Shown here: one piece after another, positions 5,476 through 42,549 of the stretch
How positions within the stretch are numbered: the first letter of the stretch is position 1
How the letters are laid out: each line of letters starts with the position of its first letter
From: an uncultured Clostridium sp.
Lineage (GTDB): Bacteria; Bacillota; Clostridia; TANB77; CAG-508
NCBI GenBank assembly: GCA_947064765.1
Contig: CAMSWH010000001.1
Coordinates: 73-64,072 of the forward strand
Reading direction: 5' to 3'
Length of the DNA stretch: 64,000 nt
The notes under the pieces: generated by a model
Told to the model about the DNA's origin: nothing
What the model saw: only the letters and a program-made list of their open reading frames with translations
The model's database searches: none
Position numbers and translations under genes: made by a program

Positions 5476-5672
5476 GTAATTTTTTTCATGTTTTTTATTA
5501 TAATATTTAAAAGAATTTATACTTTAAATTGTATTCAAAATAAAACAATTTTATTGTAGTTTTATGTAAATTTTATTTGAATCACTGTATTTTGTTGACT
5601 TATAGCCGCATCCCTGTTATACTATTAATTGTAAGTATTTCATACATTTTTTATTTGGAGGTATTAAATTTA

Positions 5673-6817: not shown

Positions 6818-6853
6818 GTTTATTCCTCCTACCATTTTTATTTTCAATCATTT

Positions 6854-7282: not shown

Positions 7283-7580
7283 ACTTTTCCACCTCCATTT
7301 CCTATAAAATTATATTACTTTTATTTATATTTTTCAACATAGAATTGTAATTTGTTTATTTAAAATTATAAATTTCCTTCTGCAAGTTTGCTAAAAGTCT
7401 ACATGCATGAGCTCCATACATTTGAGTGTGATGATATTGAAATGAAATTGTAGATAATATTTCAAAAATTTTTTCTTAAAGTAAATAGGAAGTAAATAAA
7501 TTGGTATTGTGAAATTGATGATATAAAAATAACAATCAATTCATATAGTTACACAATTATAACAGTACATTTAGTTTAAC

Positions 7581-7645
7581 AAATTAGAAGTATATTTTTA
7601 GATGTAGATTCAATTATTTACATCTAAAAATATACTTCTAATTTA
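7581..7645. terminator. Long perfect hairpin (stem about 24-25 bp) between convergently ending genes
   Basis: AATTAGAAGTATATTTTTAGATGTA, a 14-nt loop, then TACATCTAAAAATATACTTCTAATT, overlapping the stop codon of the 7643-8362 gene. Confidence 0.5.
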
Positions 7646-8362
7646 TCTAATTAACTTTTTTATATACTGATCTGTATTTTTCCTAAAATAACCACAATGA
7701 CCTAACGAATCAACTTTGATAAATTCACTACTTTTATATTTTTTAATTCTAGGTAAGCAAAGTCTTGCTATATCTTCTGTTCCATATACAAATGTTATTT
7801 TTCTCTGTGAATTAATATCTAATTTAGGAGTTTCAATATTATAACAACTTTCTAATAAATTCTTTAAACTTTCTATTGTTACCATTGGTGCTACATATTG
7901 TTGGACTTCTCCCATTCCATTAAAACATTTATTTAATTCTTTGACTGCATTTTCTGGATGCTCTTTTATATTAAGCAAACATCTTTTATATCTATTATAA
8001 AAACATTTTTTTATAATATTGGGGAATTTAAAGATAGGAGCACTATCTACAATTACTTGTCCTATTTTATCTTGATTATGACAAAAATAATGAAAAGCAA
8101 TATTACCACCTAAAGAAAATCCTATAATTGCTTTTAATCTATCAATGTTATTCTCTTTTAGAAATTCATCAATATTTCTTTCTTCATCTTCCATTGACAT
8201 ATAGTTTGAATTTTTATAATGTCCACTATATGTTGGAATAATTAAATAATACTTATCACTTAGTCTATCTATTACGAAATTAAAAAAATTAGCACTTGTA
8301 AACATAGGGTGTAGCAACAGTATTTTTTCATTTTCTTTATTTCCATAGGTAACTATTTTCAA
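7643..8362 (-). CDS. Alpha/beta hydrolase (esterase/lipase-like) with a TTG start
   Basis: GFSLGG nucleophile elbow (GXSXG); 239 aa. The shared intergenic motif lies upstream. Confidence 0.65.
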   Translation of the reverse strand: MKIVTYGNKENEKILLLHPMFTSANFFNFVIDRLSDKYYLIIPTYSGHYKNSNYMSMEDEERNIDEFLKENNIDRLKAIIGFSLGGNIAFHYFCHNQDKIGQVIVDSAPIFKFPNIIKKCFYNRYKRCLLNIKEHPENAVKELNKCFNGMGEVQQYVAPMVTIESLKNLLESCYNIETPKLDINSQRKITFVYGTEDIARLCLPRIKKYKSSEFIKVDSLGHCGYFRKNTDQYIKKLIR

Positions 8363-23094: not shown

Positions 23095-24792
23095 TCACTT
23101 CGGCACGTTATTTTTCGGTCCGCAAGGAATCTGTCCTTCAACAATATAGCAATAAAGGTTTATCAGAAGAGACATTTTCCTCATTTCGCCTTTCTTAGCC
23201 ATTCCGCGCTTAAGACTAAGAAGTTTATTCTCAATGATCGGCATATCTACTTTTTCCAAATCAAAATACATTTCAACATACTCCAGATCAAATCCAATTA
23301 ACGACTTCAGTTTTTCCTCATCAATCTCTCCTGTCGCAAACTTTGCGAATGCACTTTCGTTTGCTGGAATAAGGAATTCATTTACAAGTTCCCTTAGCTT
23401 GTCTCCATCTGTTGCACCATTCTGCACAGCAAATCTGATAGCCGCTTCTTCGGTTGTTTCCGGCTTGATAAACTGTAAAACTTCTTCTTCATATTCCTTA
23501 TCTATTGCAAGTTCTGTTTTCAGCTCTTCTCCCGAAATTTCTCCCTTCAGATATAGCATCAACACCTTTCCACTATCCTTTTTTATTAAAAGATCCGCAA
23601 TTTCAAATTCGCGCGTTATATCAGTTGACGCTGTTATATATCCCATTTCATTTGAAAATTTGATTGCGGAAAAGAACCTCCCAACTTCCATTTTTCTTGT
23701 CTTAGGAAGCTCATCATCTCCAATATACTTTACATTAAAAATAAAGTTTTCTTTTGCAAGATACTCAAAGAAATATATAAATCTTTCTTTTTCAATCTCG
23801 CCGGAAATGTCCAAATCCTCTACAACATAATAATATGGAAAGTTTTTCATAACAATTCTTGAGCCCTCAAAAACTTTCAGCATCCGTTCCATCTGCTGGC
23901 AAAACTTTATATCTGTGTTCTTTAATGTCTGATACACATAATAAAGCATTCCTAAATCCCAATCAGCAAATATCTGCTTGCAAGAAAACAGCTCGACCGG
24001 ATACACTCCTGGCTCTGTGTGAATCTTCATTTTTAACTTCCTTACACTGGAAAAGCTTTGGTTCAATGATGCCTTGTTCTCAGAAACAAACCGATCTTTA
24101 TCCAACTTAAGCTCGGCAAACTCTAATAGTTCTTTTCTGAGCTTCTTATCTACCTTACGAATCTCATTTGCCACAGCATCATAAAGAATTCCATCTTCAT
24201 TGTATGGACTTATCTTATACTCATACAAGAAGAACATTTCCTCTGGATAGAAGCTCTTTCTGCTATTGTTTTCTAAAGCAAGAGAGTCCTTCACTATTCG
24301 TACTGGTTCATGTCCTTCATAAGTAATCACGCTGTAGTCCTCGGCAAAAAAATGATAATCGCTAAAAATAATCATATAAGCTCTCAATAATTTTGCCTTT
24401 TCCAGTTCCGTCATTTCTTCGGGCGCTCCCCAAAGTCTCTTCGCAGTATTTTTCATCAATTCCTTATAGCCTACAAGATAATACAGTGCATTTTCAATTG
24501 TACGAAGTTTTGAAACCAATGCCATAATATCCGCTGGTTTCGCCGTTGATTTTCCTGTAGCACCAATACCAAAATATTTCTTTACTTTGCTAAAGTCAGC
24601 TTTTCCTAAAGTATCCTCAAAAACAGGAAAAGCCTCTTCAACAATCATCTTAATATCAATTTTATTTTGCCCCCCTTCTGGAACAAGCGCCTCATAGAAT
24701 TTCACAATTGCTTTTTCATCACTTTGTGAAACCTTTTCATAAGACACTACCTTCCGTGCCTGAAGCGGTGCTTTGGGTAAGAAATTCTTCAT
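23095..24792 (-). CDS. Hypothetical protein (565 aa) encoded in a GC-elevated island
   Basis: The start was set at MKNFLP because AAGGAGGG lies 7 nt upstream; the longer ORF to 24912 has no RBS. There is a possible Walker-A-like GIGATGKST and otherwise no recognisable domains. A GC-rich hairpin GGCCACCAC...GTGGTGGCC lies downstream (about 22992-23023). Confidence 0.5.
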   Translation of the reverse strand: MKNFLPKAPLQARKVVSYEKVSQSDEKAIVKFYEALVPEGGQNKIDIKMIVEEAFPVFEDTLGKADFSKVKKYFGIGATGKSTAKPADIMALVSKLRTIENALYYLVGYKELMKNTAKRLWGAPEEMTELEKAKLLRAYMIIFSDYHFFAEDYSVITYEGHEPVRIVKDSLALENNSRKSFYPEEMFFLYEYKISPYNEDGILYDAVANEIRKVDKKLRKELLEFAELKLDKDRFVSENKASLNQSFSSVRKLKMKIHTEPGVYPVELFSCKQIFADWDLGMLYYVYQTLKNTDIKFCQQMERMLKVFEGSRIVMKNFPYYYVVEDLDISGEIEKERFIYFFEYLAKENFIFNVKYIGDDELPKTRKMEVGRFFSAIKFSNEMGYITASTDITREFEIADLLIKKDSGKVLMLYLKGEISGEELKTELAIDKEYEEEVLQFIKPETTEEAAIRFAVQNGATDGDKLRELVNEFLIPANESAFAKFATGEIDEEKLKSLIGFDLEYVEMYFDLEKVDMPIIENKLLSLKRGMAKKGEMRKMSLLINLYCYIVEGQIPCGPKNNVPK

Positions 24793-25122
24793 AGGCATCC
24801 CTCCTTGAGTTTTTTGTTTTCTGCTACTTGTTGCCATGTCTCTTTCTTTCCTTTCTACTATTTTGTTTTCAATGTTCATGAACACATTACTACTTTTTTT
24901 GTAACTAGTCATACATTTTTATTTTTTCATGTTATGTTAACTTTTGCAATATAAAAATTTAAAAAGTACAGAACGCAAATTATTACGCATTCTGTACTCT
25001 TTTTCTTTCACAATAAAATCTTGTGTGTCTCGGTTTACATTACTTTCGAATTATTCCTCGCTGGCTTCTGCTTTTTTAGATAGTCCATTCTCATTTCAAG
25101 AATCATTTTCAGATATGTTTTA

Positions 25123-25689
25123 CTATTCTTCAGATTCGTCAGAGGAAAAAGCCGTAAAGGGAATCATTGCCTCAACTCCACACAGCATCTGAATAAAAGC
25201 TGCAACTGATTCAGGCATTCCTTCAGGAACAAAATTTCTGTATATTTGCATCATAAACTTATGGCTATTTCTTTCTACCATAGCACTGCAAATATCATTG
25301 ATATCTTCTATTCCTTTTACCTGAATAGATTCTTTGACCATTTTAATAATCAGTGCCTGTGCTTTCACATCATCAGTAAGGTGAAGAACCATCTCGATAG
25401 AATCTGCAAAATTCACCTTGAATGATGCTATAACATCTTCTGCTATGCATTCTTTATTCTGTTCAAATTCATTTCTTAATGTGTTAGCTGCAAGTTTTAC
25501 ATTAGAATCAGGTGCACTTTTCTCCATTTTTTTCATCTGAACAATCAGATCCTCTGTTGCCAGATTGATTCTGTCCTTTACTTGTTCGGATTCCAGAAAA
25601 GCATTTACTTCTTCATACAGCCCTTTCTGCCGGAAAAATTTATCTTTTTCTTCCAACAATTTTTGTAGTTCCTTTTGTTCTTCGTTCAT
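25123..25689 (-). CDS. Hypothetical protein (188 aa), partner of the 565-aa gene in the GC-elevated island
   Basis: An AAGAGAGG RBS lies 7 nt before the ATG. It is acidic and helical, and a hairpin with flanking A/T tracts follows it (about 24961-24998). Confidence 0.5.
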   Translation of the reverse strand: MNEEQKELQKLLEEKDKFFRQKGLYEEVNAFLESEQVKDRINLATEDLIVQMKKMEKSAPDSNVKLAANTLRNEFEQNKECIAEDVIASFKVNFADSIEMVLHLTDDVKAQALIIKMVKESIQVKGIEDINDICSAMVERNSHKFMMQIYRNFVPEGMPESVAAFIQMLCGVEAMIPFTAFSSDESEE

Positions 25690-26838: not shown

Positions 26839-27393
26839 TTAAATTTCTAAATGCGTCCCTAAAAAACCTGCTGCTGATTGTGCAACTTTATCCTCTGCAT
26901 CTCCCATCTTTTGATTAGGTTCTTTTGATAATAAAATTACACTTCCCACAACATCTCCATCTGTTATTATTGGATATATAACTTGTGAATTATATATTCT
27001 TTCTCTACCTTCATTTTGAGTTATTGGAATAGCTATTTCGTTATTTTCTTTACTTTTGAAAATTTCTTTATTTTCCATTACTTCCTCTAACTCTTTACTT
27101 AAGTTTTTTTCTAAAAAGTCTTTTTTTGAACCACCAGAAACTGCTATAACTGTATCTTTATCTGTTATACATGCAATATGTCCTGTTGTTTTAGCTATAG
27201 TATCTGCATATGTGCTAGCAAATTCTGTAAGTTCACCTATTGGAGAATATTTTTTTAATATTATTTCTCCTTCTTTATCTGTGAATATTTCTAGTGGATC
27301 TCCTTCTTTTATTCTATGGACTTTTCTTATTTCTTTAGGAATAACAACTCTACCTAAATCATCTATTCTTCTTACAACACCTGTTGCTTTCAT
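26839..27393 (-). CDS. spoVT: Stage V sporulation protein T (AbrB-type N-domain plus GAF-like C-domain)
   Basis: MKATGVVRRIDDLGRVVIPKEIRKVHRIKEGDPLEIF is the SpoVT/AbrB swapped-hairpin domain; the 184-aa length is typical of SpoVT. Confidence 0.85.
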   Translation of the reverse strand: MKATGVVRRIDDLGRVVIPKEIRKVHRIKEGDPLEIFTDKEGEIILKKYSPIGELTEFASTYADTIAKTTGHIACITDKDTVIAVSGGSKKDFLEKNLSKELEEVMENKEIFKSKENNEIAIPITQNEGRERIYNSQVIYPIITDGDVVGSVILLSKEPNQKMGDAEDKVAQSAAGFLGTHLEI

Positions 27394-30429: not shown

Positions 30430-32424
30430 TTATATGCTATCAATATCTATTGCTTTTTTTCTTGTATATATACGTCTTCTTGGTAAATCTTTATATAAGT
30501 TTAATATATTTTCCAAGTCGTTTGCAAATTCTCTTAAAGTAACTGTTTTTATATTAACTTCTTTTCCAGCACAATATTCATCAAGAGTTGATTTTAATTC
30601 AGTTATAAAAGGAATTTCAGCTTCAATCTCTCTTCTATATTTTTTAGCTCTTATTAATAACATTTCTTTTATTTTCATTATATCTTCATTACTTGCACAT
30701 GTAATTCTTTGCATCATTTTATTAACATCATAGTAATTTAATATTGGAGTTTTTGAACATTCTGTGGTAAATTTGTCATAAAACACTTCCATTTTCATTG
30801 GTATACACTTGAATATTTCTTCTGCCTTTTCTTTATACATCTTAATTTTTAATTTTCTATTCAATTCATGGAAATGTTGTAATACATCATTCATATCTTC
30901 TCCAACATCAATTCCAATTCTTGAAAGTTCTTCTTCAATATTATCACAATATTCAGATGTTTCAGCAGCTAAATCCATACCCTCTAAGAATATTTCTTTA
31001 ACTTCTTGCATTTCATAAGGTATTAATTTTCTTCTTGAAAAATAACTAAAATATGCAAACAATTTTACAAGCTCAATTAATTTCAAATCTCCATTTTTTA
31101 CATTTGAAATTACTTCTTCTATAACATATGGGAATTGATCATCTGATATTTTCCAATATTCTTCTGTAAGTAATCTTTTATATCCAGGTAATTTTTCAGT
31201 ATCTATTGTTTGAATAATCATTTCCATATCATTTTTAAAAATTTTCATATCAAAAATTCTTGTTCTTACATATACTTCTATAAATTTAAAGAATCTATAT
31301 TCTGATTTAAAATTAAAATAATAATTATTATCAAATTCTTTTATATAGAATTGTCTATTATCCATTAAAACCCTTGAAGAAACTAAAATTGATTTATATT
31401 CTTCATTACTACTAATATTTACAAATTTATCTTTTGTTATTTTTCCTGCTTTTATTTCGAATGATACAGCTATTGTAAATATTAACATAGTTTGTAATAC
31501 TCTTAAATTAGTATTTGGATAAAATTTATTTACTGTTTCAAAAATCTTTTTAAAATCATTTAATGCATGTTTTAAAATTCTAAGGTTTCTAGTTCCTGAT
31601 TTTATAAATGTATTTGTTATTAAATCTGTATGTTCTCTTAAAAATCTAATTAAATCTTCATTTGTCTCATATCTCATTAAAAGTCCATTTATTATATAAT
31701 TAAATTTAGGTGCATATTCAAAAGTTTCACCAATTAATTTTTCTTTTATTCTTTCATAATCATTTGCTTTATCAAATACATATTCTATTTTTTCGCCAAT
31801 TTTTTCAACCATTGGTTTATCAGCTGTAAGCAATGTTCCTTCTTTATCTAAAAGATATGTTGCAATAAACGTTTTCATTTCCAAGTTTGAACTTTTTAAT
31901 TTTGTTGATAATTCTTTTTCATTACAAATTATAATTGTTTTTATATGGTCATGTTCAACAAAGTTATTAATATATCCTAATATATCTATAACATCAACAT
32001 TAGCTCTCTCTAAGTCGTCAAAACATAATACTTTGTCATCTGTTGAGAAAAATTGTGCATAATCCATTTTGTCCCCATTTTGTGTTACGCCAAAAAGATG
32101 TGCCATATCTAATCCTGTTTTTGCATATTCAGGTATAGATGTTTTATCATGAGTAGTCATATATTTTCTCATGTTTTTATCCATAAGCTGTGTTGTTTCT
32201 ATAAATATTTTTTTACTTATATCTTCTAAGTTTGATATCCCATATAATGACATATATATTGTTGTATATTTTTTTCCATTAAATGAAAGTGAATCTATTT
32301 TATTTCTAATTTTGTTATTCCAAAAATAAGTTTTTCCACTTCCCCATTCACCATTTATCATTATTGCATAATCAGTGTAATCAGCTCTTACATAATCTAA
32401 AATACTTTCTACTAAATCTTCCAT
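30430..32424 (-). CDS. KAP-family P-loop NTPase (664 aa)
   Basis: Walker A GEWGSGKTYF is the KAP-specific GxWGxGKT variant. It has a Walker-B-like hhhhDDLE and a long helical C-terminal region. Confidence 0.65.
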   Translation of the reverse strand: MEDLVESILDYVRADYTDYAIMINGEWGSGKTYFWNNKIRNKIDSLSFNGKKYTTIYMSLYGISNLEDISKKIFIETTQLMDKNMRKYMTTHDKTSIPEYAKTGLDMAHLFGVTQNGDKMDYAQFFSTDDKVLCFDDLERANVDVIDILGYINNFVEHDHIKTIIICNEKELSTKLKSSNLEMKTFIATYLLDKEGTLLTADKPMVEKIGEKIEYVFDKANDYERIKEKLIGETFEYAPKFNYIINGLLMRYETNEDLIRFLREHTDLITNTFIKSGTRNLRILKHALNDFKKIFETVNKFYPNTNLRVLQTMLIFTIAVSFEIKAGKITKDKFVNISSNEEYKSILVSSRVLMDNRQFYIKEFDNNYYFNFKSEYRFFKFIEVYVRTRIFDMKIFKNDMEMIIQTIDTEKLPGYKRLLTEEYWKISDDQFPYVIEEVISNVKNGDLKLIELVKLFAYFSYFSRRKLIPYEMQEVKEIFLEGMDLAAETSEYCDNIEEELSRIGIDVGEDMNDVLQHFHELNRKLKIKMYKEKAEEIFKCIPMKMEVFYDKFTTECSKTPILNYYDVNKMMQRITCASNEDIMKIKEMLLIRAKKYRREIEAEIPFITELKSTLDEYCAGKEVNIKTVTLREFANDLENILNLYKDLPRRRIYTRKKAIDIDSI

Positions 32425-32529: not shown

Positions 32530-33243
32530 TTAGTCTTTTGCTATTACTATAACTAATATTTCCTTTGCTCCAGCTTCTTTTAGTTTTTTTGATATTTCAT
32601 TTACTGTTGCTCCTGTTGTATATATATCATCAAACAAAATTATTTTCTTATCTAATACTTTTCTTTTTTCATTAATAATATATGCATCTCTTATATTATC
32701 TTTTCTTTCTTCTTTTTTTAATGTACTTTGAGTTTTTGTATTTTTAATCTTTTTTAATAAGTTTTCTTCATACAAAATCTCTTGATTTTCTGCTACTAAT
32801 TTTGCTATTAATTCTGTTTGATTATATCCTCTCTTCTGCTTTTTTATTTTCTCCATTGGAACTGAAATTATTATATCATATAATTTTAAAATTTCGTAAA
32901 GTTTTTTATTATTTAAGATTTGATTTGAAAAAAAGTTAGATAAATATGGCTTAGAACCAAACTTATATTTTAATATATATTTTCTAATAATACTTTTGTA
33001 CTCAAAACAATATAATAACTTTTCCCAATATATTTTTTCACCCTGCACAAAATAATACTTTTGTTTTAAATTAACATTCTGAATATTTAATTTATCAATA
33101 ATCCTTTTCCTATTATCAATAATTCCAAATTTTTTATATTTATAAAATCTTTTTTCACATTTTTCACATATATAATTTCTATTTAATTTCCCACAGATTA
33201 CGCATGTTTGTGGAAATAAAAAATTGAGAACAAACTCAAGCAT
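32530..33243 (-). CDS. comFC: ComF-family protein (ComFC-like, phosphoribosyltransferase fold with an N-terminal zinc ribbon)
   Basis: CVICGKL...CEKCEKRF zinc ribbon and a C-terminal PRTase motif IILFDDIYTTGATVNEISKKL. The start was set at MLEF after an AAAGGAGC RBS. Confidence 0.65.
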   Translation of the reverse strand: MLEFVLNFLFPQTCVICGKLNRNYICEKCEKRFYKYKKFGIIDNRKRIIDKLNIQNVNLKQKYYFVQGEKIYWEKLLYCFEYKSIIRKYILKYKFGSKPYLSNFFSNQILNNKKLYEILKLYDIIISVPMEKIKKQKRGYNQTELIAKLVAENQEILYEENLLKKIKNTKTQSTLKKEERKDNIRDAYIINEKRKVLDKKIILFDDIYTTGATVNEISKKLKEAGAKEILVIVIAKD

Positions 33244-33281
33244 TTTTGCTCCTTTCTTTGCCCCCAATTTTATTTAAAATT

Positions 33282-35969
33282 TTATTTTTTTAAGCTTTCC
33301 AATCTTTCTTCTACATTGATAAGCATTTGTTTATAATTTTCAAGTTTTGCTTTTTCCTCATTAACTTTTGCTTCTGGTGCTTTATTTACAAAACCTGGAT
33401 TTGATAGCATCTTCTCTCCTCTTGTAACTTCTGCTTCCAATTTTGTTTTTTCGTCTTGTAATCTTTTTATTTCCTCTTCAATATCAACTAATTCTTCAAA
33501 TGGTATAAAAACTTTTAAATCATCTACAACTATTGAAACTGCATTTTTAGGAACTTCCTCTTCAGCTTTTATAATAACTATTTCATTTGCAAATCCTAAT
33601 TTTAATAAAAATTCTTCTGCTTCTTTTATTTCATTTTCTATTGCATTTGACATTATTAATAATTTTGATTTTTTAGATGGATGAACATTCATTTTTGTTC
33701 TAATATTTCTAATTTCAACAATTACTCTTTTTAATTTCTCTATAGTATCTTCTTCTTTATCAAAAACAAATCTTTCTCTTATATCTGGCCATTTTGCTAC
33801 CATTAAATCAGGTGTTCCAAAATAAATTAAATTTGAATATATTTCTGATGTAACAAATGGCATAAATGGATGTAATAATTTTAATGAAGAAGCAAATACA
33901 TGATTTAGTACATCTGTTACAGCTACTTTTGTGTTCTCATCTTCACTATAAATTCTTGGTTTTACCATTTCTATATACCAATCACAAAACTCATTCCAAA
34001 TAAAACTATATATTTTGTCAAGTGCAATTCCTAAATCATAATTATCAAGATTTTTACTAACATCTACTACTAATTTATCAAGTTTATTTAAAATCCATTT
34101 ATCTTCAATTCTCAATAATTCTGGATTATAAGCTTTTTCTTTTTCAAAAACTTCATAGCAAAATTCTCTTACTTTTTCTTCATCTGCTGAATTCATTGTA
34201 ATAAATTTAGCCGCATTCCATATTTTATTTGCAAAATTTGATGCTTGCTCTAACTTTTCAGGCATAAATCTAATATCATTTCCCATTGTTGTACCTGAAA
34301 GTAATGAAAATCTTAAACTATCTGCTCCATATTTATCTATAATTTCTAGTGGATCTATACCATTTCCTAAAGTTTTAGACATCTTTCTTCCTTGACTATC
34401 TCTAACTATTCCATGTATTAAAATATCTTTAAATGGTACTTCTCCTGTAAATTCTAGGCCTTGTGTCATCATTCTTGAAATCCAGAAAGTTATAATATCA
34501 AATCCTGTTACTAAAGTTTGTGTTGGATAGAATTCTTTATAATCTTCTGATTCTGTATTTGGCCAACCTAGTGTAGAAAATGGCCATAATGCAGAACTAA
34601 ACCAAGTATCTAAAGTATCTGGATCTTGAACTAAATTTGTACTTCCACATTTTTCACATTTTTCTGGTAGCTTTTTAGCTACAGTAATATGATTACATTC
34701 TTTGCAAGTATATGCTGGTATTCTATGTCCCCACCATAATTGACGAGAAATACACCAATCTTGTATATTATCTAACCAATGAAAATATTGTTTTTCATAT
34801 CTTTGAGGAACAAACTTTGCTTCTCCATTTCTTACACTATCTGCTGCTCTTTTAGCTAAATCTTTCATACTTACAAACCATTGCTCTGAGATTTTGGGTT
34901 CTATAGTATTTTTACATCTTTCGCATTTTGCTACATTATGTGTATAATCTTCTGTTCTTACTAATGCTCCTATTTCATCTAATCTTTTAACAATTGCTTT
35001 TCTTGCATCTAATAAATCCATACCTGTATATTCTGGTACTAAATTTCCCATTTTAAAGTGTTCATCAAATACTTCAATTATTTCTAAATTATGACGTAAT
35101 CCTGCTTGATAATCATTCATATCATGTGCTGGTGTGATTTTAACACAACCTGTTCCAAATTCCATTTCAACAAATTCATCTGCAATTATTGGTATTTCTT
35201 TATTCATTATTGGAAGTATACAAGTTTTTCCAACTAAATCTTTATATCTTTTATCATCTGGATGAACTGCAACTGCTGTATCTCCAAGCATTGTTTCTGG
35301 TCTTGTTGTTGCTACTTCAATATAATCATTTTCTGTTCCTGTTATTTTATATCTAATATGCCATAAATGTGATGCTTCTTCTTTATATTCAACTTCTGCA
35401 TCTGAAATTGATGTATTACAACTTGTACACCAATTTACCATTCTTTTTCCTTTATATATTAATCCTTTTTCATACAATTTAACAAATTGCTCTAAAACTG
35501 CGTCTGACATTCCTTCATCTAAAGTAAATCTGTTTCTATCCCAATCACAAGAACATCCCAATTTTCTTTGTTGCTCTTGAATAATTCCACCATATTGTTT
35601 AGTCCAATTCCATGCTTCTTCTAAAAACTTATCTCTTCCTAAATCTTTTTTAGATTTTCCTTCTTTTGTAAGTTTTTGTACTACTTTCATTTCTGTTGAA
35701 ATTGATGCATGATCTGTTCCCGGAAGCCATAGTGTTTTAAATCTTCTCATTCTCTTATATCTAATTAAAATATCTTGTATTGCTCCATCAAGTGCATGCC
35801 CCATATGCAATTTTCCTGTTACATTAGGAGGTGGCATCATTATACAATAAGTTTCCCCATTATTTTGTTCTGATGGCTTAAAATATCCTTTTTCTTCCCA
35901 CTCCTTATATAATCTGTCCTCAAAATCTTTTGGATTAAATTTGTCATTTAGTTTTGTTTTTTCACTCAT
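33282..35969 (-). CDS. valS: Valine--tRNA ligase
   Basis: PPPNVTGKLHMGHALD (HIGH region), a KMSKS motif and a C-terminal coiled coil; 895 aa. Confidence 0.95.
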   Translation of the reverse strand: MSEKTKLNDKFNPKDFEDRLYKEWEEKGYFKPSEQNNGETYCIMMPPPNVTGKLHMGHALDGAIQDILIRYKRMRRFKTLWLPGTDHASISTEMKVVQKLTKEGKSKKDLGRDKFLEEAWNWTKQYGGIIQEQQRKLGCSCDWDRNRFTLDEGMSDAVLEQFVKLYEKGLIYKGKRMVNWCTSCNTSISDAEVEYKEEASHLWHIRYKITGTENDYIEVATTRPETMLGDTAVAVHPDDKRYKDLVGKTCILPIMNKEIPIIADEFVEMEFGTGCVKITPAHDMNDYQAGLRHNLEIIEVFDEHFKMGNLVPEYTGMDLLDARKAIVKRLDEIGALVRTEDYTHNVAKCERCKNTIEPKISEQWFVSMKDLAKRAADSVRNGEAKFVPQRYEKQYFHWLDNIQDWCISRQLWWGHRIPAYTCKECNHITVAKKLPEKCEKCGSTNLVQDPDTLDTWFSSALWPFSTLGWPNTESEDYKEFYPTQTLVTGFDIITFWISRMMTQGLEFTGEVPFKDILIHGIVRDSQGRKMSKTLGNGIDPLEIIDKYGADSLRFSLLSGTTMGNDIRFMPEKLEQASNFANKIWNAAKFITMNSADEEKVREFCYEVFEKEKAYNPELLRIEDKWILNKLDKLVVDVSKNLDNYDLGIALDKIYSFIWNEFCDWYIEMVKPRIYSEDENTKVAVTDVLNHVFASSLKLLHPFMPFVTSEIYSNLIYFGTPDLMVAKWPDIRERFVFDKEEDTIEKLKRVIVEIRNIRTKMNVHPSKKSKLLIMSNAIENEIKEAEEFLLKLGFANEIVIIKAEEEVPKNAVSIVVDDLKVFIPFEELVDIEEEIKRLQDEKTKLEAEVTRGEKMLSNPGFVNKAPEAKVNEEKAKLENYKQMLINVEERLESLKK

Positions 35970-36074: not shown

Positions 36075-36320
36075 AAAAAAGCCCTTATACTTACGTATAA
36101 GGGCGAATATTTACCACGGTACCACCTTATTTATCTATTTTAATTAATTAAAATAAACATCTCTTAGATTTTAACGTATCTTACACGAATATACTTAAAG
36201 TTAATTTCAGTATATCAACTCCAAAGCTACCTTCAAACAAACCTTACTATTTAAGAAGCTCTCAGCCTATGACTTCTTTTCTCTTTATAGAGCTTTTGTT
36301 TTACTCCTCTTTTTCATAGT
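36075..36320 (-). promoter_or_regulatory. T-box riboswitch leader of valS (approximate bounds)
   Basis: On the minus strand AAGGTGGTACCGTGG (T-box) is followed by the terminator GCCCTTATACGTAAGTATAAGGGC plus TTTTTT; an AGAGA-containing stem I lies upstream. Confidence 0.8.
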
Positions 36321-36538
36321 TTTTAAATTATATTTAATATATTAACATAATTTTCTAAGTAAATCAAGAGTTATTTTATAATATTTTAACCTCTTTTTGA
36401 TACTAAAAAAAATTATTAGTACCATCAAAACTTTTATTTAATAGAAAATATGTAATATTTCAATTAAATAAGAAAAGAGTGCCAGATAATTCTGACACTC
36501 TCTTCTTATTTTCTCATAAAATTCTTTATCAATATTAT

Positions 36539-37906
36539 TTATTCATCTAATAGTACTTTTTTTAATCTTGCTTTCAACATATTTTTTGTTTCAAAGTACT
36601 CAGCAAAAACATTATATGCAAATTCCAAAAATTCTTTTGTATAAATGCTATTCATTTTCACTTTTATCTTTTCGATCAAAAAATTGTCTCGTGCTTGAAC
36701 AATTTCTTCAAGCATTTCTTCTAGCAAATCTGTAAAATTCATCTTTAAGTCAGTATCAACTCCCGCAATATATTCATATTTTCTCCTTGCTTCAGGAAGC
36801 AAAAAGATATACGGTAGCTTTTCTAAGCAAGACATTGCTTCTATATAACTTTTCAAAATTGGCTTGAAATCCTCTGTTGGAGCATTATAAGTAGTGCAGA
36901 AATTATATCTTTTCTTGATATACTCCAACCTAGATTTTCTTACCTCTTGAGAAGGAAGATTTGGAAGCAAAGCAGCCTTTGTGTTAATAACTGGTTCGTA
37001 ACTTGCAACACCAATATCTGCAAACATACCTGAATCCAAAAAATCAACTAATTCTTTAAATTCTTTCTCTGTCTCCCCTGGAAAACCAACAATGACTTCT
37101 GTCGATAATATCAAATCTGATCTTTTTTCAAGCAGTTTAGATACTCTCTCTTTTACAAACTCAAAAGTAGGTCTATTCATACTTTTCAAAATATCATTAT
37201 TGGTATGCTGGATATGTAACATGATTTCTACAACATTTTTGCATCTTGTAATCGTATTTATGAAATCATCTGTTAATCCAGCTGGATGAAACCATCCTAT
37301 CACGTATTTAGAATTAGGATATTGAGTGCTAATATTTTCAATCAACTCTGAAATCTTGTAAGTACCATATAAATCAGTTCCATAGTCGGAGGTTTCCAAT
37401 GCTCCTGTAATATAAATAACAGTTTCATTTTCATAAATCTCCTCAACTTCTCTTAATACTTCTTCCATCGGTTTACTTCTATAATTTGCATCTATCAATG
37501 GATATACGCAATATGAACACTTTTTTCGGCATCCTGTACTAATAATTATCTGGTTTTGTGGTATAAACTTTTTTGTAACTTTTGGCTTTCCAATCATTAG
37601 CTGTAATTCCTCAAAAGTTTTAACACATATTCTTGGAATAGCCTTAAGTTCTTGAGCATTAGTTTTTACAAGACAACCACTAACAATTACCTTGCTATCT
37701 GGCTTAGAGTTTCTAACTACATCAGCAATAACTCTCATGCTATACTCTCTTTTATTTCCGAAAGCACATGTCATTATAATAGTAACATCAGCCTTTGTAT
37801 AATCAGAAACTATCTCATAACCATTTTGAACCATTCCAGAAATTAAACTGTTTGCCTTATCTAGATCCATATGCATTTCACTACACAAAACAATGGCAAC
37901 TTTCAT
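36539..37906 (-). CDS. Radical-SAM methylthiotransferase (MiaB/RimO MTTase family)-like enzyme lacking a TRAM domain
   Basis: The N-terminal MTTase domain has three spaced Cys residues (about positions 8, 46 and 77). The radical-SAM CxxxCxxC motif is GCRKKCSYCVYP. The roughly 120-aa C-terminus is helical with no TRAM. The gene lies 12 nt downstream of the preceding gene. Confidence 0.65.
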   Translation of the reverse strand: MKVAIVLCSEMHMDLDKANSLISGMVQNGYEIVSDYTKADVTIIMTCAFGNKREYSMRVIADVVRNSKPDSKVIVSGCLVKTNAQELKAIPRICVKTFEELQLMIGKPKVTKKFIPQNQIIISTGCRKKCSYCVYPLIDANYRSKPMEEVLREVEEIYENETVIYITGALETSDYGTDLYGTYKISELIENISTQYPNSKYVIGWFHPAGLTDDFINTITRCKNVVEIMLHIQHTNNDILKSMNRPTFEFVKERVSKLLEKRSDLILSTEVIVGFPGETEKEFKELVDFLDSGMFADIGVASYEPVINTKAALLPNLPSQEVRKSRLEYIKKRYNFCTTYNAPTEDFKPILKSYIEAMSCLEKLPYIFLLPEARRKYEYIAGVDTDLKMNFTDLLEEMLEEIVQARDNFLIEKIKVKMNSIYTKEFLEFAYNVFAEYFETKNMLKARLKKVLLDE

Positions 37907-37918
37907 ATGAACTCTCCT

Positions 37919-38491
37919 TTAGACAGGCATAGTTATTTTTATATAATAATTATAATTCTCATCATTGGATGCTTCATACGTTCCTCCATGTTCTAATACC
38001 CATCCTCTTGCATCTATGACTTTATTACCCTCTTTATAAGCATAAAAAGCAAATGGATTCTTTAAAAAGCACAATATTGCTCTAAAATCATCAAAATACA
38101 TAATTGAACGGACTCCATTCAAACTATATACCTTATTGGTAGCAACATGGACTGAATTGACATAAATTTTATATTCATATCCATCACTTCCTTTATTTAT
38201 TAGAAATCTCTCAAATTGTTCTTCAGCAAGTTTAACTTTCAAGGGCTTTAATATATTCTGATATTCTAAATATGCCTGGATTTTTTCAGCAATGCTATCA
38301 TTAACAACTAAATCATTTTTTCCTGTGGCATCCCATTCATAAAATATCTGCTCTAATTCTGCTGAAGTAATCACAACTTCGCCACCTGCAGTATTTATAA
38401 TTTTGCTCACAGATTGAGTCACCAAATTCTGCTGTACTTCCTGCTGGACATCAGCTTTTGGCTGTTCTTCTGGTATAATTTTTCTTGACAT
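37919..38491 (-). CDS. Hypothetical soluble protein (190 aa), third gene of the AAA+ operon
   Basis: Its start overlaps the stop of the upstream gene (translational coupling). It shares the operon's elevated GC. Confidence 0.5.
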   Translation of the reverse strand: MSRKIIPEEQPKADVQQEVQQNLVTQSVSKIINTAGGEVVITSAELEQIFYEWDATGKNDLVVNDSIAEKIQAYLEYQNILKPLKVKLAEEQFERFLINKGSDGYEYKIYVNSVHVATNKVYSLNGVRSIMYFDDFRAILCFLKNPFAFYAYKEGNKVIDARGWVLEHGGTYEASNDENYNYYIKITMPV

Positions 38492-38492
38492 A

Positions 38493-39071
38493 TTACTCCT
38501 CCTCTACATAGTAGTTATTTACATACTCGTAGCCTTCATTTCTTTCAGGTAAATACATCTCCATTGTTTCTTTAAAGCTTTCTGTGCTTCCCAGAGCCTC
38601 CTCAAGATCTCTAAATTTCATGCATCCCTGTCCCGGAAATCCTGACGTTTTTATTTCAGTTTTTCCTCCTGAATAACATACAACAGAAATCTGCCCACCA
38701 GATTCCTCATCAGTTAATGTAAGCGTTATCATACCTTTTTCTTCATTTTCTGTAACAGAAAGACCTCTTTGAAAGGCCTCAATTTTTACCTTTTCAGCAG
38801 AATACTGCTGAAGCAAAATTCCAGCATTTTTGCCTACATATCTTGAAACTTCACCGTCATACATGTCCGCTTTTACTTCATATTCCTCATTCTTCAGGTT
38901 AAGAGCAATATCATACTTTCCCGGAAGCTTAACTACCAAATCCGCCATTTCAGCACCATAATAATAACGTGCCTTAGAATGTTCATTAAGTAAAAATCCC
39001 ATTTTGGAAACGGCTGCCTGAAGGGCTTCTCTGTCCTTTATTTGTGTTGCAATTCTTGTAAAATGACTCAT
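38493..39071 (-). CDS. Hypothetical soluble protein (192 aa), second gene of the AAA+ operon; possibly Ycf35/DUF1257-like
   Basis: The N-terminus MSHFTRIATQIKDREALQAAVSKMGF recalls cyanobacterial Ycf35-type proteins, but this rests on memory only. It overlaps the AAA+ gene stop by 4 nt. Confidence 0.45.
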   Translation of the reverse strand: MSHFTRIATQIKDREALQAAVSKMGFLLNEHSKARYYYGAEMADLVVKLPGKYDIALNLKNEEYEVKADMYDGEVSRYVGKNAGILLQQYSAEKVKIEAFQRGLSVTENEEKGMITLTLTDEESGGQISVVCYSGGKTEIKTSGFPGQGCMKFRDLEEALGSTESFKETMEMYLPERNEGYEYVNNYYVEEE

Positions 39072-39074
39072 CTT

Positions 39075-40652
39075 TTATTCCTCCTTACTGGTGTCTTTAT
39101 CCTGCTGAATAAATCTCTGTCTTGTAACAATCTCCTCATCAACCTGCTGAGCAGTATTAGCCTTACTGATTCCCACTACATTACTCCACTTTCTAAGAGA
39201 CTCAATTTGTTCCTTCATCATGCCCTTTGCCATAGGATTAATCATTTTGATTGCTTCAATAATACATTCTGTTGTGAGTTTTTTATTCTCACTATTCCAG
39301 CTATTATAGAGTGCATCTACAATTCCCTGCTCAATTTCAGCACCTGTGTAATCTTCAGACTCATTAACTAACATATCCAAATCAAAATCTGCTGAATCTC
39401 TCTTATATTTTTTGAGCTGGATAGAAAATATCTCTTTTCTTTCCTCTTTTGACGGCAAATCAACAAAAAAGATCTCATCAAATCTGCCCTTTCTCAAAAA
39501 CTCTGGTGGAAGTTCAGATATGCTATTAGCCGTGGCAATTACAAATACCGGCGCCTTCTTCTCCTGCATCCATGTAAGGATAGTTCCAAACATACGAGAT
39601 GTTACTCCTGAGTCTGTTTTTCCGCTTGATTGAATTCCTGACAATCCTTTCTCTATTTCATCAATCCACAGGATTGCCGGTGACATAGCTTCTGCAGTTT
39701 GCAAAGCACGCCGTGTATTAGACTCTGTATCACCTACAAGAGATCCAAACAGTTTTCCAATATCAAGCTTCAGCAACGGTTTCTGCCATAAATTAGCAAG
39801 AGCCTTAGCACTCAAACTTTTACCACATCCTGGAATACCTATGAGCAAAGTGCCCTTTGGATATGGAATACCGTATTCCTGTGCTTCATGAGAATATGCC
39901 GACAGTCTCTTAGTTGCCCAAGAAGTAAAATTCTTCATACCGCCAACACTCTCCAGAGTCTCTTCAGAAGACAAATACTCAAGTAAACCACCACTACAAA
40001 TCGTTTGTTCTTTAACATGGTTGATCAGCTTAACATCAAATCTGCCATACTTAGCAATTGATGTAGCATACGCGTTCTCTGCCTCATTAATAGTAAGTCC
40101 TAACGCTGCTTCTACAAGATCCGCTGTATTATTCGGGAGTGCAACTTTAAAATTTGTTGACATTTCTGTTAACTTGTTACCTAATTCCTCCCGTGTTGGT
40201 AATGGAAGTGTTGTTACAATAACTTCCCTCTTAAGTTCTGGAGGAATGTTAAACTCTATACTGGCAAATACATAAGTCACACCAATCGCCTTGGCAATTT
40301 TAAATACATCTTTTGCCCGCCTCCAAACATTTGATGTCTTAACAAATGAATGAAAATCCAGCATAAGAAAAATCTTTCCATTGATTCCCATGTCTTTGAG
40401 TCCTGCTTCAAGCGCCTTTACCGGATCTGTTACTACCTGCTGTTTGTTGGTAATCTCATTCTCAACATCTCTATTTGTCATCTTGGAATAATCTTTAACC
40501 TGCTTCTGAACACCTCCAGTTAAAGTCCAATATTCAAAACTCTTGTTGAGTTTTTTGGCCAAATTGCTGCACTCAAACAGTGCTCTTTCTTCCTCAGCCG
40601 TTGTAAGAATGATTGCCGGATATCCTGCTCTTACGAAGTTCTCCATTTCCAT
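39075..40652 (-). CDS. AAA+ ATPase with a large N-terminal domain (Ycf46-like architecture)
   Basis: Walker A GIPGCGKSLSAKALA, Walker B AILWIDEIEKG and a second region of homology with FLRKGRFDEIFFVDLP (classic AAA clade). 525 aa, with an AGAGGAAG RBS 7 nt before the ATG. Confidence 0.7.
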   Translation of the reverse strand: MEMENFVRAGYPAIILTTAEEERALFECSNLAKKLNKSFEYWTLTGGVQKQVKDYSKMTNRDVENEITNKQQVVTDPVKALEAGLKDMGINGKIFLMLDFHSFVKTSNVWRRAKDVFKIAKAIGVTYVFASIEFNIPPELKREVIVTTLPLPTREELGNKLTEMSTNFKVALPNNTADLVEAALGLTINEAENAYATSIAKYGRFDVKLINHVKEQTICSGGLLEYLSSEETLESVGGMKNFTSWATKRLSAYSHEAQEYGIPYPKGTLLIGIPGCGKSLSAKALANLWQKPLLKLDIGKLFGSLVGDTESNTRRALQTAEAMSPAILWIDEIEKGLSGIQSSGKTDSGVTSRMFGTILTWMQEKKAPVFVIATANSISELPPEFLRKGRFDEIFFVDLPSKEERKEIFSIQLKKYKRDSADFDLDMLVNESEDYTGAEIEQGIVDALYNSWNSENKKLTTECIIEAIKMINPMAKGMMKEQIESLRKWSNVVGISKANTAQQVDEEIVTRQRFIQQDKDTSKEE

Positions 40653-40917
40653 AAATGCTTCCTCTCTTTCTTTTTATAAAATTTTCAATGTGCTGTACTA
40701 CTATTTGAATTGACATATTGATAAAATTAACTTAACATTATAATCGAATTTGATATTAATATAAGTTAATCTCTGTCAAATACATATAATTACAATTTAT
40801 ATTATACCATTTTTCTAAATAATTGTAAACATTTTATGTAAATTTATAAATAAAACAGTAATCTATGTATAATTAACCTAGATTACTGTTTATTATTAAA
40901 CTTTAACTTTCATAACT

Positions 40918-41868
40918 TTAATTAATTTCTAATACACTATATATATGCTTAACTGTATTTTCTAAAACTTCCATTGGATAGAAAATTAATTTATAATATT
41001 TTCTTATAAGTTTTTCATCTAACCCATTTCTAAATGTAGGTGGTTCAAATAATTGACCACATCTGTATCTGAAATATAAACAATCATCAACAATTTTAAC
41101 TTCAAAAAAATAGCCACTTATATTTATTATATCTATATACTTTTCAATTAAATCTGCTGTAAAAATTTGCATAGCTGTTACTTTATCTTGTGTATAAAGA
41201 TCATAGTACTTTTCAAATTCTGCCGAATCAACTTCTATTCTATTTTTACTAAATCTTTTAATATTGTTATTACTTGCTATATGTATATCTATTTTACTAT
41301 TCTTATCTAATTTAACAAAACCATACATTCCTCTAAAAGTTTCTGTTCTATTTTCTTTTCTATTTCCATCTGCATCTTTATAAATTTCTACATTATAGCT
41401 TGCAATTTCAGAAGCTTGAATATTACCACCACTTCTTATTTTTCCGTATATTCTATCTTCTGAATAGAATTCATCAAAGCTATTATCAAAATTTGATATT
41501 TTATAATCTACTCTTGATACACCAATTGCTTGATCAAAATTCAAATCTTCATTATACTCTTTTACCAAACTTTCAATAACACATTTTTTATATATAGTTC
41601 TATAATTTTTTCTTGCATTTACTATTAATATAATTAAAATAGCTATTGAAACAGAGATCGTTAGTGTTATCATATATCTTGCCTCTGCTAAAACTATATA
41701 AAGTATCAAATTAATAATTAGCTCAGCTATAAAAACATATAAAATAAATTTATTATTTTTTCTTTTTACTTCATCTAAATGTTCCTTGCTTGTTTTACAT
41801 ACATTTTCATATATTTCTTCAAAACTTTTTTTCATTTTTCTCACTTTTCTTTCATCAATTTTTTTCAT
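40918..41868 (-). CDS. Membrane protein commonly paired with LemA (DUF3137-like)
   Basis: Two N-terminal TM helices plus a soluble domain, immediately downstream of a LemA gene. The terminator hairpin ACAGTAATCTA...TAGATTACTGT follows it. Confidence 0.45.
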   Translation of the reverse strand: MKKIDERKVRKMKKSFEEIYENVCKTSKEHLDEVKRKNNKFILYVFIAELIINLILYIVLAEARYMITLTISVSIAILIILIVNARKNYRTIYKKCVIESLVKEYNEDLNFDQAIGVSRVDYKISNFDNSFDEFYSEDRIYGKIRSGGNIQASEIASYNVEIYKDADGNRKENRTETFRGMYGFVKLDKNSKIDIHIASNNNIKRFSKNRIEVDSAEFEKYYDLYTQDKVTAMQIFTADLIEKYIDIINISGYFFEVKIVDDCLYFRYRCGQLFEPPTFRNGLDEKLIRKYYKLIFYPMEVLENTVKHIYSVLEIN

Positions 41869-41976: not shown

Positions 41977-42549
41977 TTATAAATCAATATTTATTTTACC
42001 TTTTTTATACTCTTCTATTTCAAATAAAGCTTCTTCTTTAAAGCCAAATATCTTAGCAAAAATGTTATTTGGAAAAGTACTTATTGTTGTATTGTATAAC
42101 GTAATATCTCCATTATATATTCTTCTTGCCGCTTGAAGCTGACTTTCCATCTTTTCTAAACTTTTTTGAAGATTTAAAAATTGTTCATTTGCCTTTAAAT
42201 CTGGGCTATTTTCTGCAACTGATAATATCTTATTAAATTCTGAATTAATTTTAGCACCTTCTGTTAATTCTTTTCTTTCTTGATTATTATAATTTACTCT
42301 CATTTGTACTATATTAGTAAGCACTTTTTCTTCATAATTTGTATATGCTTTCACACATTCTACTAAATTAGGAATTAAATCAAATCTCTGATTTAAATAC
42401 ACTTCAATACTAGATTTTGATTGTCTTATTTTATTTCTTAATCGTATAAATGTATTAAATTCTACAATAAAAAATAATCCTATTGCTATTAGTATTCCCA
42501 TAAATAATACTTCTGGCATATTAGCCTGTTTTATTAGTTCATTTTCCAT
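41977..42549 (-). CDS. lemA: LemA family protein
   Basis: N-terminal TM helix and LemA core (NTFIRLRNKIRQSKSSIEVYLNQRFDLIPNLV). Confidence 0.8.
   Translation of the reverse strand: MENELIKQANMPEVLFMGILIAIGLFFIVEFNTFIRLRNKIRQSKSSIEVYLNQRFDLIPNLVECVKAYTNYEEKVLTNIVQMRVNYNNQERKELTEGAKINSEFNKILSVAENSPDLKANEQFLNLQKSLEKMESQLQAARRIYNGDITLYNTTISTFPNNIFAKIFGFKEEALFEIEEYKKGKINIDL

Follow-up and report, generated by a model that had tools for sequence, protein, structure and literature searches.

Some of the closest described relatives of the genes reported here are cyanobacterial. A three-gene ycf46 operon of cyanobacteria is induced by stress and by guanosine tetraphosphate (ppGpp) (10.1101/2025.07.21.665879), and a cyanobacterial DUF2997 gene clusters with ycf35 and the ferredoxin gene fed7 (PMC4284462). 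The Ycf46/Ycf35(DUF1257)/DUF2997 module, which has no established mechanism, is shared by cyanobacteria, the plastids of algae and many phages. Of the methylthiotransferases (MTTases), only RimO is known to act on a protein, of which it modifies just one. Here we report an operon of four genes (genes 1 to 4) in a 64,000-nucleotide (nt) stretch of DNA from an uncultured Clostridium sp. (contig CAMSWH010000001.1), referred to throughout as the window. A Ycf46-type AAA+ ATPase (gene 1), a DUF1257-DUF2997 protein (gene 2) and a radical S-adenosylmethionine (SAM) enzyme of RimO-like type without a TRAM domain (gene 4) form the core of a conserved system of uncultured gut and rumen Clostridia; gene 3 encodes a putative client.

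The operon has the same ATPase architecture, paired with DUF1257 and DUF2997, as the cyanobacterial and plastid Ycf46 systems, but differs from them in that the two DUFs are fused, in the addition of the radical SAM enzyme and of proteins with a short terminal tag (here called clients), and in its anaerobic Firmicute host. In the case of the S. elongatus ycf46 operon (Synpcc7942_0416-0418), the likeness is by ycf46, and the flanking genes are candidates for DUF1257 and DUF2997. The system has no name in the profile libraries searched (PADLOC, the June 2026 NCBIfam, Pfam and PHROGs), and a full-text literature search returned no description of it, only the ycf46 operon, the DUF2997-ycf35-fed7 cluster and generic COG labels; this agrees with the first-pass annotation of the window, made from its letters, where the combination was held to be undescribed. 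As judged from sequence comparison, all components belong to known superfamilies, and what appears to be new is a TRAM-less, RimO-like subfamily of MTTases together with a Ycf46/Ycf35 module coupled to a radical SAM enzyme.

One genome per GTDB species was scanned, and 30 loci were found, all from uncultured Clostridia of the human, mouse or ruminant gut (e.g. Clostridium sp. CAG:245). In 28 of these 30 species-level genomes, the genes for the AAA ATPase, the DUF1257-DUF2997 protein and the radical SAM enzyme are grouped on one strand and keep one order, the two exceptions being a 1.1-kb contig and one degenerate locus, and thus the co-localisation on which the first-pass annotation had staked its proposal was found. 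The same core order recurs on metagenome contigs as well. The radical SAM gene directly follows the 3′ end of the DUF1257-DUF2997 gene in most loci, with a spacing of -4 to +6 nt; client genes lie between the two in the window and in loci L001, L020-24 and L037-39. Sister genomes carry the operon at the same chromosomal site (pyrD, LemA, DUF3137, the operon, valS, KAP NTPase), with two gene 3 paralogues against one in the window. In all 29 loci compared, the core genes had a higher GC content at third codon positions (GC3) than the flanks, with a mean difference of 0.084, which fits a module moving between genomes. Horizontal acquisition, as first supposed from the composition of the window, is therefore in keeping with the atypical GC3, but a recent arrival is not, since the site is shared with the sister genomes and any transfer is thus not recent in the lineage of the window.

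Gene 4 (36539-37906, minus strand) is an open reading frame (ORF) of 455 amino acids (aa). It matched UPF0004 (PF00919) with 47 bits, against a cut-off of 27, and Radical_SAM (PF04055) with 74 bits. The UPF0004 domain (37622-37906, minus) holds the auxiliary-cluster cysteines C8, C47 and C78, which are at least 90% conserved in 40 homologues, and the radical SAM core (36905-37561, minus) holds C126-x3-C130-x2-C133, invariant in alignment A1; both cysteine clusters had been picked out in the first pass. The following region (residues 335-455; 36542-36904, minus) is a family-specific C-terminal domain of about 120 aa that replaces TRAM. Its conserved residues are Y340, Y354, A381-G-x-D-T385, R406, Y422-T423, K441 and L452, and it ends in [KR]-A-[KR]-x-L-L-L. 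No TRAM was found in the whole protein at E<=0.01, nor in residues 323-455 at E<=10, and the C-terminal domain had no Pfam match at E<=10, so that the absence of TRAM and the enzyme's own C-terminus, both noted at the outset, held.

The protein scored under every curated MTTase cut-off: 202.1 bits against 251 for TIGR00089, 193.8 against 357 for RimO, 165.2 against 357 for MtaB and 130.5 against 355 for MiaB. The family profile aligned with RimO (4jc0) at E 1e-54 (residues 21-334, aligned with RimO residues 18-354) and with MiaB (7mjv) at E 5e-27, and the matches to both structures stop at residues 334-336. From these profiles, gene 4 is predicted to be an MTTase-type radical SAM enzyme, nearer to RimO than to MiaB. 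Like RimO (T. maritima 4JC0, the β-methylthiotransferase of S12 Asp88), it has a UPF0004 domain with three cysteines and a CX3CX2C core; unlike RimO, it has its own C-terminal domain in the place of TRAM, and its gene shares an operon with those of an AAA+ ATPase and tagged proteins, whereas the RimO gene is a stand-alone housekeeping gene. MiaB, MtaB and e-MtaB (CDKAL1), which act on tRNA A37, share the two-cluster N-terminal and central architecture with gene 4, but they are more distant from it than RimO, and gene 4 differs from them, too, in having no TRAM. More than 100 full-length homologues were found (45-78% identity), and where they carry a name at all, it is "radical SAM protein [Clostridia bacterium]". 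Since the RNA-binding TRAM domain is absent, an RNA substrate is unlikely; a protein substrate is better motivated, if unproven, because the enzyme looks RimO-like and tag-bearing proteins are co-encoded with it.

A few variants of the enzyme were seen. A short subgroup (L023, L024 and L027; P0117, P0119 and about 15 others) is linked to clients of the gene 3 type (g3); in L027, the ATPase and gene 2 are lost and a truncated g3 is kept. The homologue P0040 retains just one of the three auxiliary-cluster cysteines, with THAFG and TGDLV in the place of TCAFG and TGCLV. The phage collection yielded only matches to canonical MTTases, at 25-31% identity over 65-73% of the query, and the radical SAM gene was present in none of 80 viral loci of the ATPase family; a phage origin of the enzyme was rejected on these two grounds.

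Gene 1 (39075-40652, minus; 525 aa) belongs to the Ycf46/phrog_8638 family of classic-clade AAA+ ATPases (the COG0464 SpoVK/Ycf46/Vps4 group). It matched PF00004 at residues 269-398 (E 1.7e-30) and phrog_8638 over its full length (residues 2-513, E 6e-131), in agreement with its first description as a classic-clade, Ycf46-like AAA protein with an N-terminal domain of about 250 aa. The Walker A (GIPGCGKS), the Walker B (ILWIDEIE) and the arginine fingers (in FLRKGRFD) are all present, and GxxGxGKS, DE and R-x-G-R-F-D are invariant across the family (alignment A4). The closest solved relatives are p97/Cdc48 D1 domains, and pore loop 1 is L-V-G, with no aromatic residue, as in p97 D1. The N-terminal domain (residues 1-245; 39918-40652, minus) had no sequence match in Pfam or the PDB. 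However, profile-profile comparison of the N-terminal half with the AAA half gave an alignment (E 2e-4, probability 46%) that keeps the same register (136-200 against 136-204), and for this reason the domain, which had at first been given as one without known function, is probably a degenerate second AAA-like module without Walker A, although the comparison is suggestive only. Inteins were seen in many members of the ATPase family (P0164, P0168, P0195, P0214, P0216 and P0252), and in one of them the AAA core is further interrupted by a LAGLIDADG domain.

Gene 2 (38493-39071, minus; 192 aa) has a Ycf35-like DUF1257 domain at residues ~1-120 (33.1 bits against the Pfam cut-off of 22.2), followed at residues ~121-175 by DUF2997, which scored just under its cut-off (23.2 against 24.1 bits). 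The second assignment is backed by the precomputed PF11211 hits of close homologues and by the G-x-x-G-x-x-C and EYY motifs, which are common to stand-alone DUF2997 proteins. The two domains had been named among the families to look for in the four proteins; both were detected, as were the Ycf46-like AAA, UPF0004 and Radical_SAM domains named along with them, but they are fused in gene 2 and not spread over two proteins. The invariant features are the N-terminal MSHF and a single cysteine, Cys150, in G-F-x-G-x-x-C, and both MSHF and the DUF2997 cysteine are also kept in the stand-alone DUF1257 and DUF2997 proteins of phages. In the AlphaFold2 (AF2) model, with a predicted local distance difference test (pLDDT) value of 74, a KA1-like α+β domain is followed by a small β-rich domain; no solved relatives were found by sequence.

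Gene 3 (37919-38491, minus; 190 aa) belongs to no family in Pfam, NCBIfam, PHROGs or PADLOC, and a word-index search of 5.8 billion clusters returned six homologues. It starts with the tag MSRKIIPEE (38465-38491, minus; alignment A2 of homologues), in which M1, R3, I6, P7, E8 and E9 are invariant among homologues; a variable, Q-rich linker then takes up residues ~10-40, and residues ~41-190 form a folded domain. In the AF2 model, residues 1-38 have a pLDDT below 50 and residues 95-190 one of 70-89, so the predicted layout is that of a targeting peptide on a disordered linker. Comparison of the fold gave no informative match, and no viral structure was matched. One to five paralogues are present per related operon, and family f27 of L020-22 holds the same domain. 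Among all ORFs of at least 80 aa in the 64 kb of the window, gene 3 is the only one with R.[IV][IV][PFR] at a terminus.

Each operon encodes one to six such accessory proteins, and their families vary by lineage: f2 (~260-320 aa) with f6, or with f8, f7 and f9; paralogues of BspA-type leucine-rich repeat (LRR) proteins (f4); the Zn-ribbon families f23 and f24; and g3-type proteins as in the window. They are coiled-coil or repeat proteins without signal peptides. Pfam gave no match for f2, f6, f7, f8, f9, f23, f24 or f25, and identified f4 as BspA-type LRR. By profile-profile comparison the families are unrelated to each other, except for g3 with f27 and f23 with f24, and the best local matches between them are the tags themselves.

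The tag, with the approximate consensus [RK]-x-[IV]-x-[FPR], is at one terminus of most accessory proteins. It is N-terminal in f2 (MKIRRVIRFQED, MAKKRQIIFPSD and MIRRKIIFSSS), in f9 (MKKRNIQFSSE) and in g3 (MSRKIIPEEQ and MPRQIIPIG); the L001 paralogues carry RVIRKEQ and RIIRKES, and LRR and Zn-ribbon members have C-terminal variants (GV[IV]R[PT]NLIANKKK, KRNIIFMKED and PRRRIRK). The tags precede polar, charged, low-complexity linkers, such as PEEQPKADVQQEVQQ in gene 3. N-terminal tags were counted in 24 of 26 f2, 7 of 10 g3, 4 of 7 f9 and 3 of 3 f27 proteins. Overall, a regular expression for the tag matched 34 of the 113 proteins encoded in the operons and 13 of the 259 encoded in the flanks, an enrichment whose significance is optimistic as the expression was drawn from the same loci that were counted; several of the 13 flank hits, on the other hand, are operon members that fell outside the operon definition. 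A Tat (twin-arginine translocation) signal, in which S/T-R-R-x-F-L-K precedes a hydrophobic h-region of 12-20 residues and a signal-peptidase site, was considered for the R-R-x-I-I-F tags. It was rejected because the tags lack an h-region and in part lie at C-termini, and because the cytosolic ATPase bears the motif as well. In the rumen lineage of L020-L022, the clients are 3-5 BspA-type LRR paralogues without signal peptides, encoded on both sides of the radical SAM gene, all of which end in F[SNC]G[VT][IV]R[PTQKD]N[LI]IA[NED]K[KR]K.

The ATPases themselves end in a similar motif. Every operon ATPase has the tail [G]-R-x-[IV]-x-x, and in gene 1 the local form of this family-wide basic-hydrophobic tail is R511-Q517, TRQRFIQQ (39102-39122, minus). 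The subtype of the tail tracks the tags of the same operon (RVIRF with RVIRF, RIIP with RIIP, RIKR with RIKR). The tail ...GSRVIRFEE of L009 goes with the accessory tag MKIRRVIRFQED, ...RRRIIPVSEEE of L024 with MPRQIIPIG, ...AARIKRAS of L029 with EFRRIKRARD and QTRIKRPD, and ...GRVIRTAEV of L001 with RVIRKEQ and RIIRKES. The tail-tag similarity was 18.1 within the same locus against 15.2 across loci (permutation p ~1e-4). A different ending was seen in one subgroup (L011, L013, L015-17, L019 and L031-33), where the gene 2 orthologues end in KER[IV][KR][LV]GGY and the ATPase tails in R-x-I-I-x(1-4)-G-G-x(1-3); these GG endings recall ubiquitin-like ...RGG tails.

The tail motif extends beyond Clostridia. 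R-x-h-x-h was found at the extreme C-terminus of 35 of 131 family representatives (~3 expected) and of 23 of 65 viral homologues (~1.5 expected), with the viral consensus G-R-x-[IL]-D-[ILV]-COOH. As it is present in viral loci, none of which has the radical SAM gene, the tail motif belongs to the ATPase module and not to the enzyme. In a few phage loci (L043, L096, L093 and L100) and in a Streptococcus satellite, neighbouring proteins have matching termini; the enrichment is weak, and we take tail-tag pairing beyond Clostridia as a lead and not as a result. The tail G-R-x-h-D-h was also compared with the S12 loop that RimO modifies, GGRVKD(88)LPG, a candidate likeness that was dropped, as no rpsL was present in the fetched DNA and the Asp is not conserved in the clade linked to the radical SAM enzyme.

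The ATPase family is common in phages, with the PHROGs family phrog_8638, 127 GenBank phage records and at least 317 IMG/VR stretches. The triad of ATPase, DUF1257 and DUF2997 was seen in at least 15 of the 80 viral loci and also in a Streptococcus satellite. Two further loci, which encode some of the closest representatives of the ATPase family, carry protease fusions. In L125, a Ycf46-type ATPase of 1045 aa (3895-7730, plus) has a complete Lon module (AAA, Lon_lid and Lon_C) at its C-terminus and is followed directly by separate DUF1257 and DUF2997 genes and then by an Hsp70-like gene. In L126 (5001-12609), an N-terminal trypsin-like peptidase is fused to the AAA ATPase, and the fusion gene is followed directly by separate DUF1257 and DUF2997 genes, with two further AAA ATPases and a dynamin-like GTPase after them. 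By the Rosetta-stone argument, these fusions tie the triad to protein unfolding and processing, and the comparison suggests that the slot taken by a protease in other clades may be taken by the radical SAM enzyme in Clostridia. Just 5′ of the trypsin-AAA fusion in L126, a protein of 286 aa (4116-4976, plus) has an N-terminal CX3CX2C and a Radical_SAM score of 24.6 bits, below the cut-off; it may be a second, independent association of the module with a radical SAM enzyme, a lead from a single case.

We tentatively read the operon, as a serious possibility rather than a probable one, as a tag-reading AAA+ module joined to a radical SAM enzyme that would modify the proteins encoded with it. The ATPase would act as a hexameric protein remodeller or unfoldase, with the gene 2 product as its adaptor or regulator. 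The module would recognise its clients by their terminal tag, while the ATPase's own tail would occupy the same receptor, for docking or for auto-inhibition. The effector carried on the module would be the fused Lon or trypsin-like protease in other clades and the radical SAM enzyme here, and the latter would modify the tagged client at a C-H bond, with a methylthio (or a related sulfur or methyl) group. In the window, the client would be the gene 3 product, and the target would be in or near the tag or the disordered linker, reached while the ATPase holds or unfolds the client. Methylthiolation of a client is proposed because both MTTase clusters are intact and TRAM, which binds RNA or S12, is replaced. 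Put more narrowly, the operon would encode the first example of an ATP-dependent, tag-directed machine for protein methylthiolation, in which the Ycf46-Ycf35-like pair presents clients to a TRAM-less radical SAM enzyme derived from RimO, and the tail and tags make up the recognition code of Ycf46/Ycf35; in this specific form we regard the proposal as doubtful.

Two functional analogies come to mind. The tail and the client tags recall Lon, FtsH and PAN/Mpa, with their HbYX/GQYL tails and ssrA degrons; unlike these AAA+ proteases, the operon has no peptidase, R-x-h-x-h is unrelated to HbYX and pore loop 1 is non-aromatic. As with the maturases of ribosomally synthesised and post-translationally modified peptides (RiPPs) and anSME-type enzymes, a radical SAM enzyme is co-encoded with several putative substrates that share a short recognition sequence, but here the clients are folded proteins of 170-430 aa instead of short precursor peptides, the enzyme is of the MTTase type and an AAA+ ATPase is in the core. 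Neither a RiPP recognition element (RRE) or SPASM domain nor a peptidase or transporter family was detected among the operon proteins.

Several observations count against modification directed by the tag. The loci are phylogenetically related, so the independent events of tail-tag co-variation are fewer than 21, and in the clade of the window the match is moderate (tail IVT[RK]xRF[VI]QQ against tag MSR[KV][VI]IPEE). Families f6, f7 and f8 have no tag. The tail motif is present in systems without the radical SAM enzyme as well, and the enzyme need not read it. No residue of fixed chemistry is constant over all the tag subtypes, and for this reason the tag may be a docking peptide only and not the modified site. 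Threading rings typically have an aromatic residue in pore loop 1, which is absent from gene 1, and the short subgroup of the radical SAM enzyme (366-383 aa) lacks the last ~90 C-terminal residues.

Should tag-directed modification prove true, it would represent a new kind of machine, where the partner of an unfoldase is a modifying enzyme in the place of a protease, and gene 4 would be only the second known protein-modifying MTTase and the first with several substrates, which would widen the protein chemistry of radical SAM enzymes. Whatever the radical SAM enzyme does, the ATPase tail and the client tags offer a mutable handle on the Ycf46/Ycf35/DUF2997 module, and the system is widespread among uncultured Clostridia of the human, mouse and ruminant gut.

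Among the other explanations, we considered that the operon protects against phages, or aborts infection, in the manner of IetAS/SgiAT (PMC10954446), an anti-phage and toxin-antitoxin system. On this view, the ATPase with the LRR, Zn-ribbon or g3 proteins would sense infection and the radical SAM enzyme would be toxic, for example by aberrant methylthiolation of the translation apparatus. IetAS, too, pairs a classic-clade AAA+ ATPase with an effector enzyme (an S8 subtilase), and gene 1 has partial hits to the PADLOC IetA model (86 bits) and to NCBIfam IteA (NF042959, 75 bits). The abundance of the ATPase family in phages and satellites, the variable, duplicated and fast-evolving accessory genes with LRR proteins among them, the raised GC3 in all 29 loci, as in a mobile module, and the KAP NTPase ~4 kb away would all fit. 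However, the IetA hit covers residues 254-504 only, which is the generic AAA core, the NF042959 score is far from its cut-off of 510, and IetA has neither the Ycf46-type N-terminal domain nor DUF1257/2997 partners. No model of PADLOC matched genes 2, 3 or 4, no IetS or other S8 protease is encoded in the operon, and no integrase, restriction or other defence genes adjoin it. The neighbours are housekeeping genes (valS and pyrD) at a site kept in sister genomes, none of the 80 viral loci has the radical SAM gene, and the motif shared by the tail and tags is left unexplained. A role in defence is thus unlikely, and no assignment to a defence system was made, as only partial AAA-core hits to IetA and TRIP13 were obtained.

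A less probable explanation still is that the radical SAM enzyme acts on a component of the core itself, i.e. on the DUF1257-DUF2997 protein or the ATPase tail, or that the DUF2997 cysteine serves as a persulfide or sulfur relay for the auxiliary cluster. The close spacing of the genes for the enzyme and the DUF1257-DUF2997 protein in most loci would agree with this, as would the single invariant cysteine in the G-x-x-G-x-x-C loop, the cyanobacterial clustering of DUF2997 and ycf35 with the ferredoxin gene and the candidate likeness of the tail to the S12 loop. On the other hand, the cysteine, the MSHF and the tail are equally conserved in systems without the radical SAM enzyme, the clade linked to it does not keep the Asp of the tail, and client genes separate gene 2 from the radical SAM gene in the window and in the nine other loci listed above.

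We find it very unlikely that the operon is a domesticated chaperone or assembly module of a phage or satellite that builds the accessory proteins into a structure, with the radical SAM enzyme as an unrelated passenger or a modifier of small molecules. The triad on viral contigs and in the Streptococcus satellite, the inteins, typical of phage genes, the coiled-coil and repeat nature of the accessory proteins, which lack signal peptides, and the atypical codon composition point that way, but the strict order, strand and translational coupling of the radical SAM gene with the triad in 28 of the 30 genomes speak against a passenger, no virion, integrase or replication genes are nearby, and gene 3 matched no viral structure. 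Lastly, it is hardly credible that gene 4 is an ordinary tRNA or S12 methylthiotransferase (MiaB, MtaB or RimO) next to an AAA ATPase by chance, for although it has the UPF0004 and radical SAM domains and matches the profiles of RimO, MtaB and MiaB best, it misses all the curated cut-offs, has no TRAM, has a family-specific C-terminal domain that is found in more than 100 homologues and is in invariant synteny with the ATPase, and in L012 a separate MTTase-type radical SAM gene (471 aa, not identified further) lies directly 5′ of mutS.

Returning to the window, the anatomy of the operon shows that the four genes are one transcription unit. The ORFs were found exactly where the first-pass annotation had placed its four co-directional minus-strand genes, and the boundaries agree with the public gene calls for identical proteins on other contigs. 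Genes 1 and 2 are separated by 3 nt (stop-aag-ATG), genes 2 and 3 by 1 nt (stop-t-ATG) and genes 3 and 4 by 12 nt, and a GGAGG-like ribosome-binding site precedes each of the junctions; given the small gaps and these sites, the genes are tightly coupled. The coupling and the 12-nt gap had thus been read correctly, whereas the 4-nt overlap and the 2-nt gap given for the other two junctions were replaced by the gaps of 3 and 1 nt.

A promoter-like site, TTTACA-17-TGnTATAAT with an extended -10 TG (40801-40829, minus; a consensus match only), is ~150 nt 5′ of the start of gene 1 and had the top score (11/12) in 36300-41000. Upstream of it, a hairpin followed by a U-run (~40849-40894, minus; RNA fold -15.6 kcal/mol, z -5.4, equalled by 0 of 200 shuffles) marks the end of the upstream DUF3137 gene and the 5′ limit of the operon, and a terminator hairpin between an A-tract and a U-tract (~36466-36511, minus; -29.1 kcal/mol, z -9.3) is its 3′ limit. 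Hairpins had been expected on both sides, and both were found, the upstream one ~20 nt away from its expected position. A simple terminator scan detected neither boundary hairpin, and RNA folding was used in its place; the scan overlooked the 3′ one because its stem runs into the T-run. Between the operon terminator and the next gene, valS (33282-35969), lies the valS T-box leader (36096-36326, minus; Rfam RF00230, 104 bits).

The composition of the four genes is atypical, as first noted for their GC content. Their bulk GC is 0.31-0.39 against a window background of 0.26 +/- 0.04, and their GC3 is 0.23-0.34 against 0.12 +/- 0.05 in the other 53 window ORFs of at least 120 aa, i.e. 2-3 times the background (z 2.2-4.6). 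Just two other genes of the window have a comparable GC3, 23095-24912 (minus; 605 aa, 0.35) and 25123-25689 (minus; 188 aa, 0.30). They have neither a Pfam family nor a terminal tag, no link to the operon was seen, and they may be another foreign insertion.

As for the neighbouring genes, a LemA and DUF3137 membrane-protein pair is encoded directly 5′ of the operon (40918-41868 and 41977-42549, both minus). The DUF3137 N-terminus, ERKVRKMKK, fits a loose form of the tag expression, probably by chance, since a terminator separates the gene from the operon and the product is a transmembrane protein. Beyond valS, a KAP-family P-loop NTPase of 664 aa (30430-32424, minus) and a double-zinc-ribbon/ComF-like phosphoribosyltransferase protein (32530-33267, minus) were detected, and these two also flank the operon in the sister genomes (L037 and L039). 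Farther away, an alanyl-tRNA-synthetase-like ORF (21008-22759, minus; tRNA-synt_2c and tRNA_SAD) has 583 aa; the usual length of alanyl-tRNA synthetase is ~870 aa, and the ORF may be truncated, split or a paralogue. A SpoVT homologue (MazE-like and SpoVT_C) is present at 26839-27393 (minus), from which it is expected that the host is probably endospore-forming and Clostridium-like.

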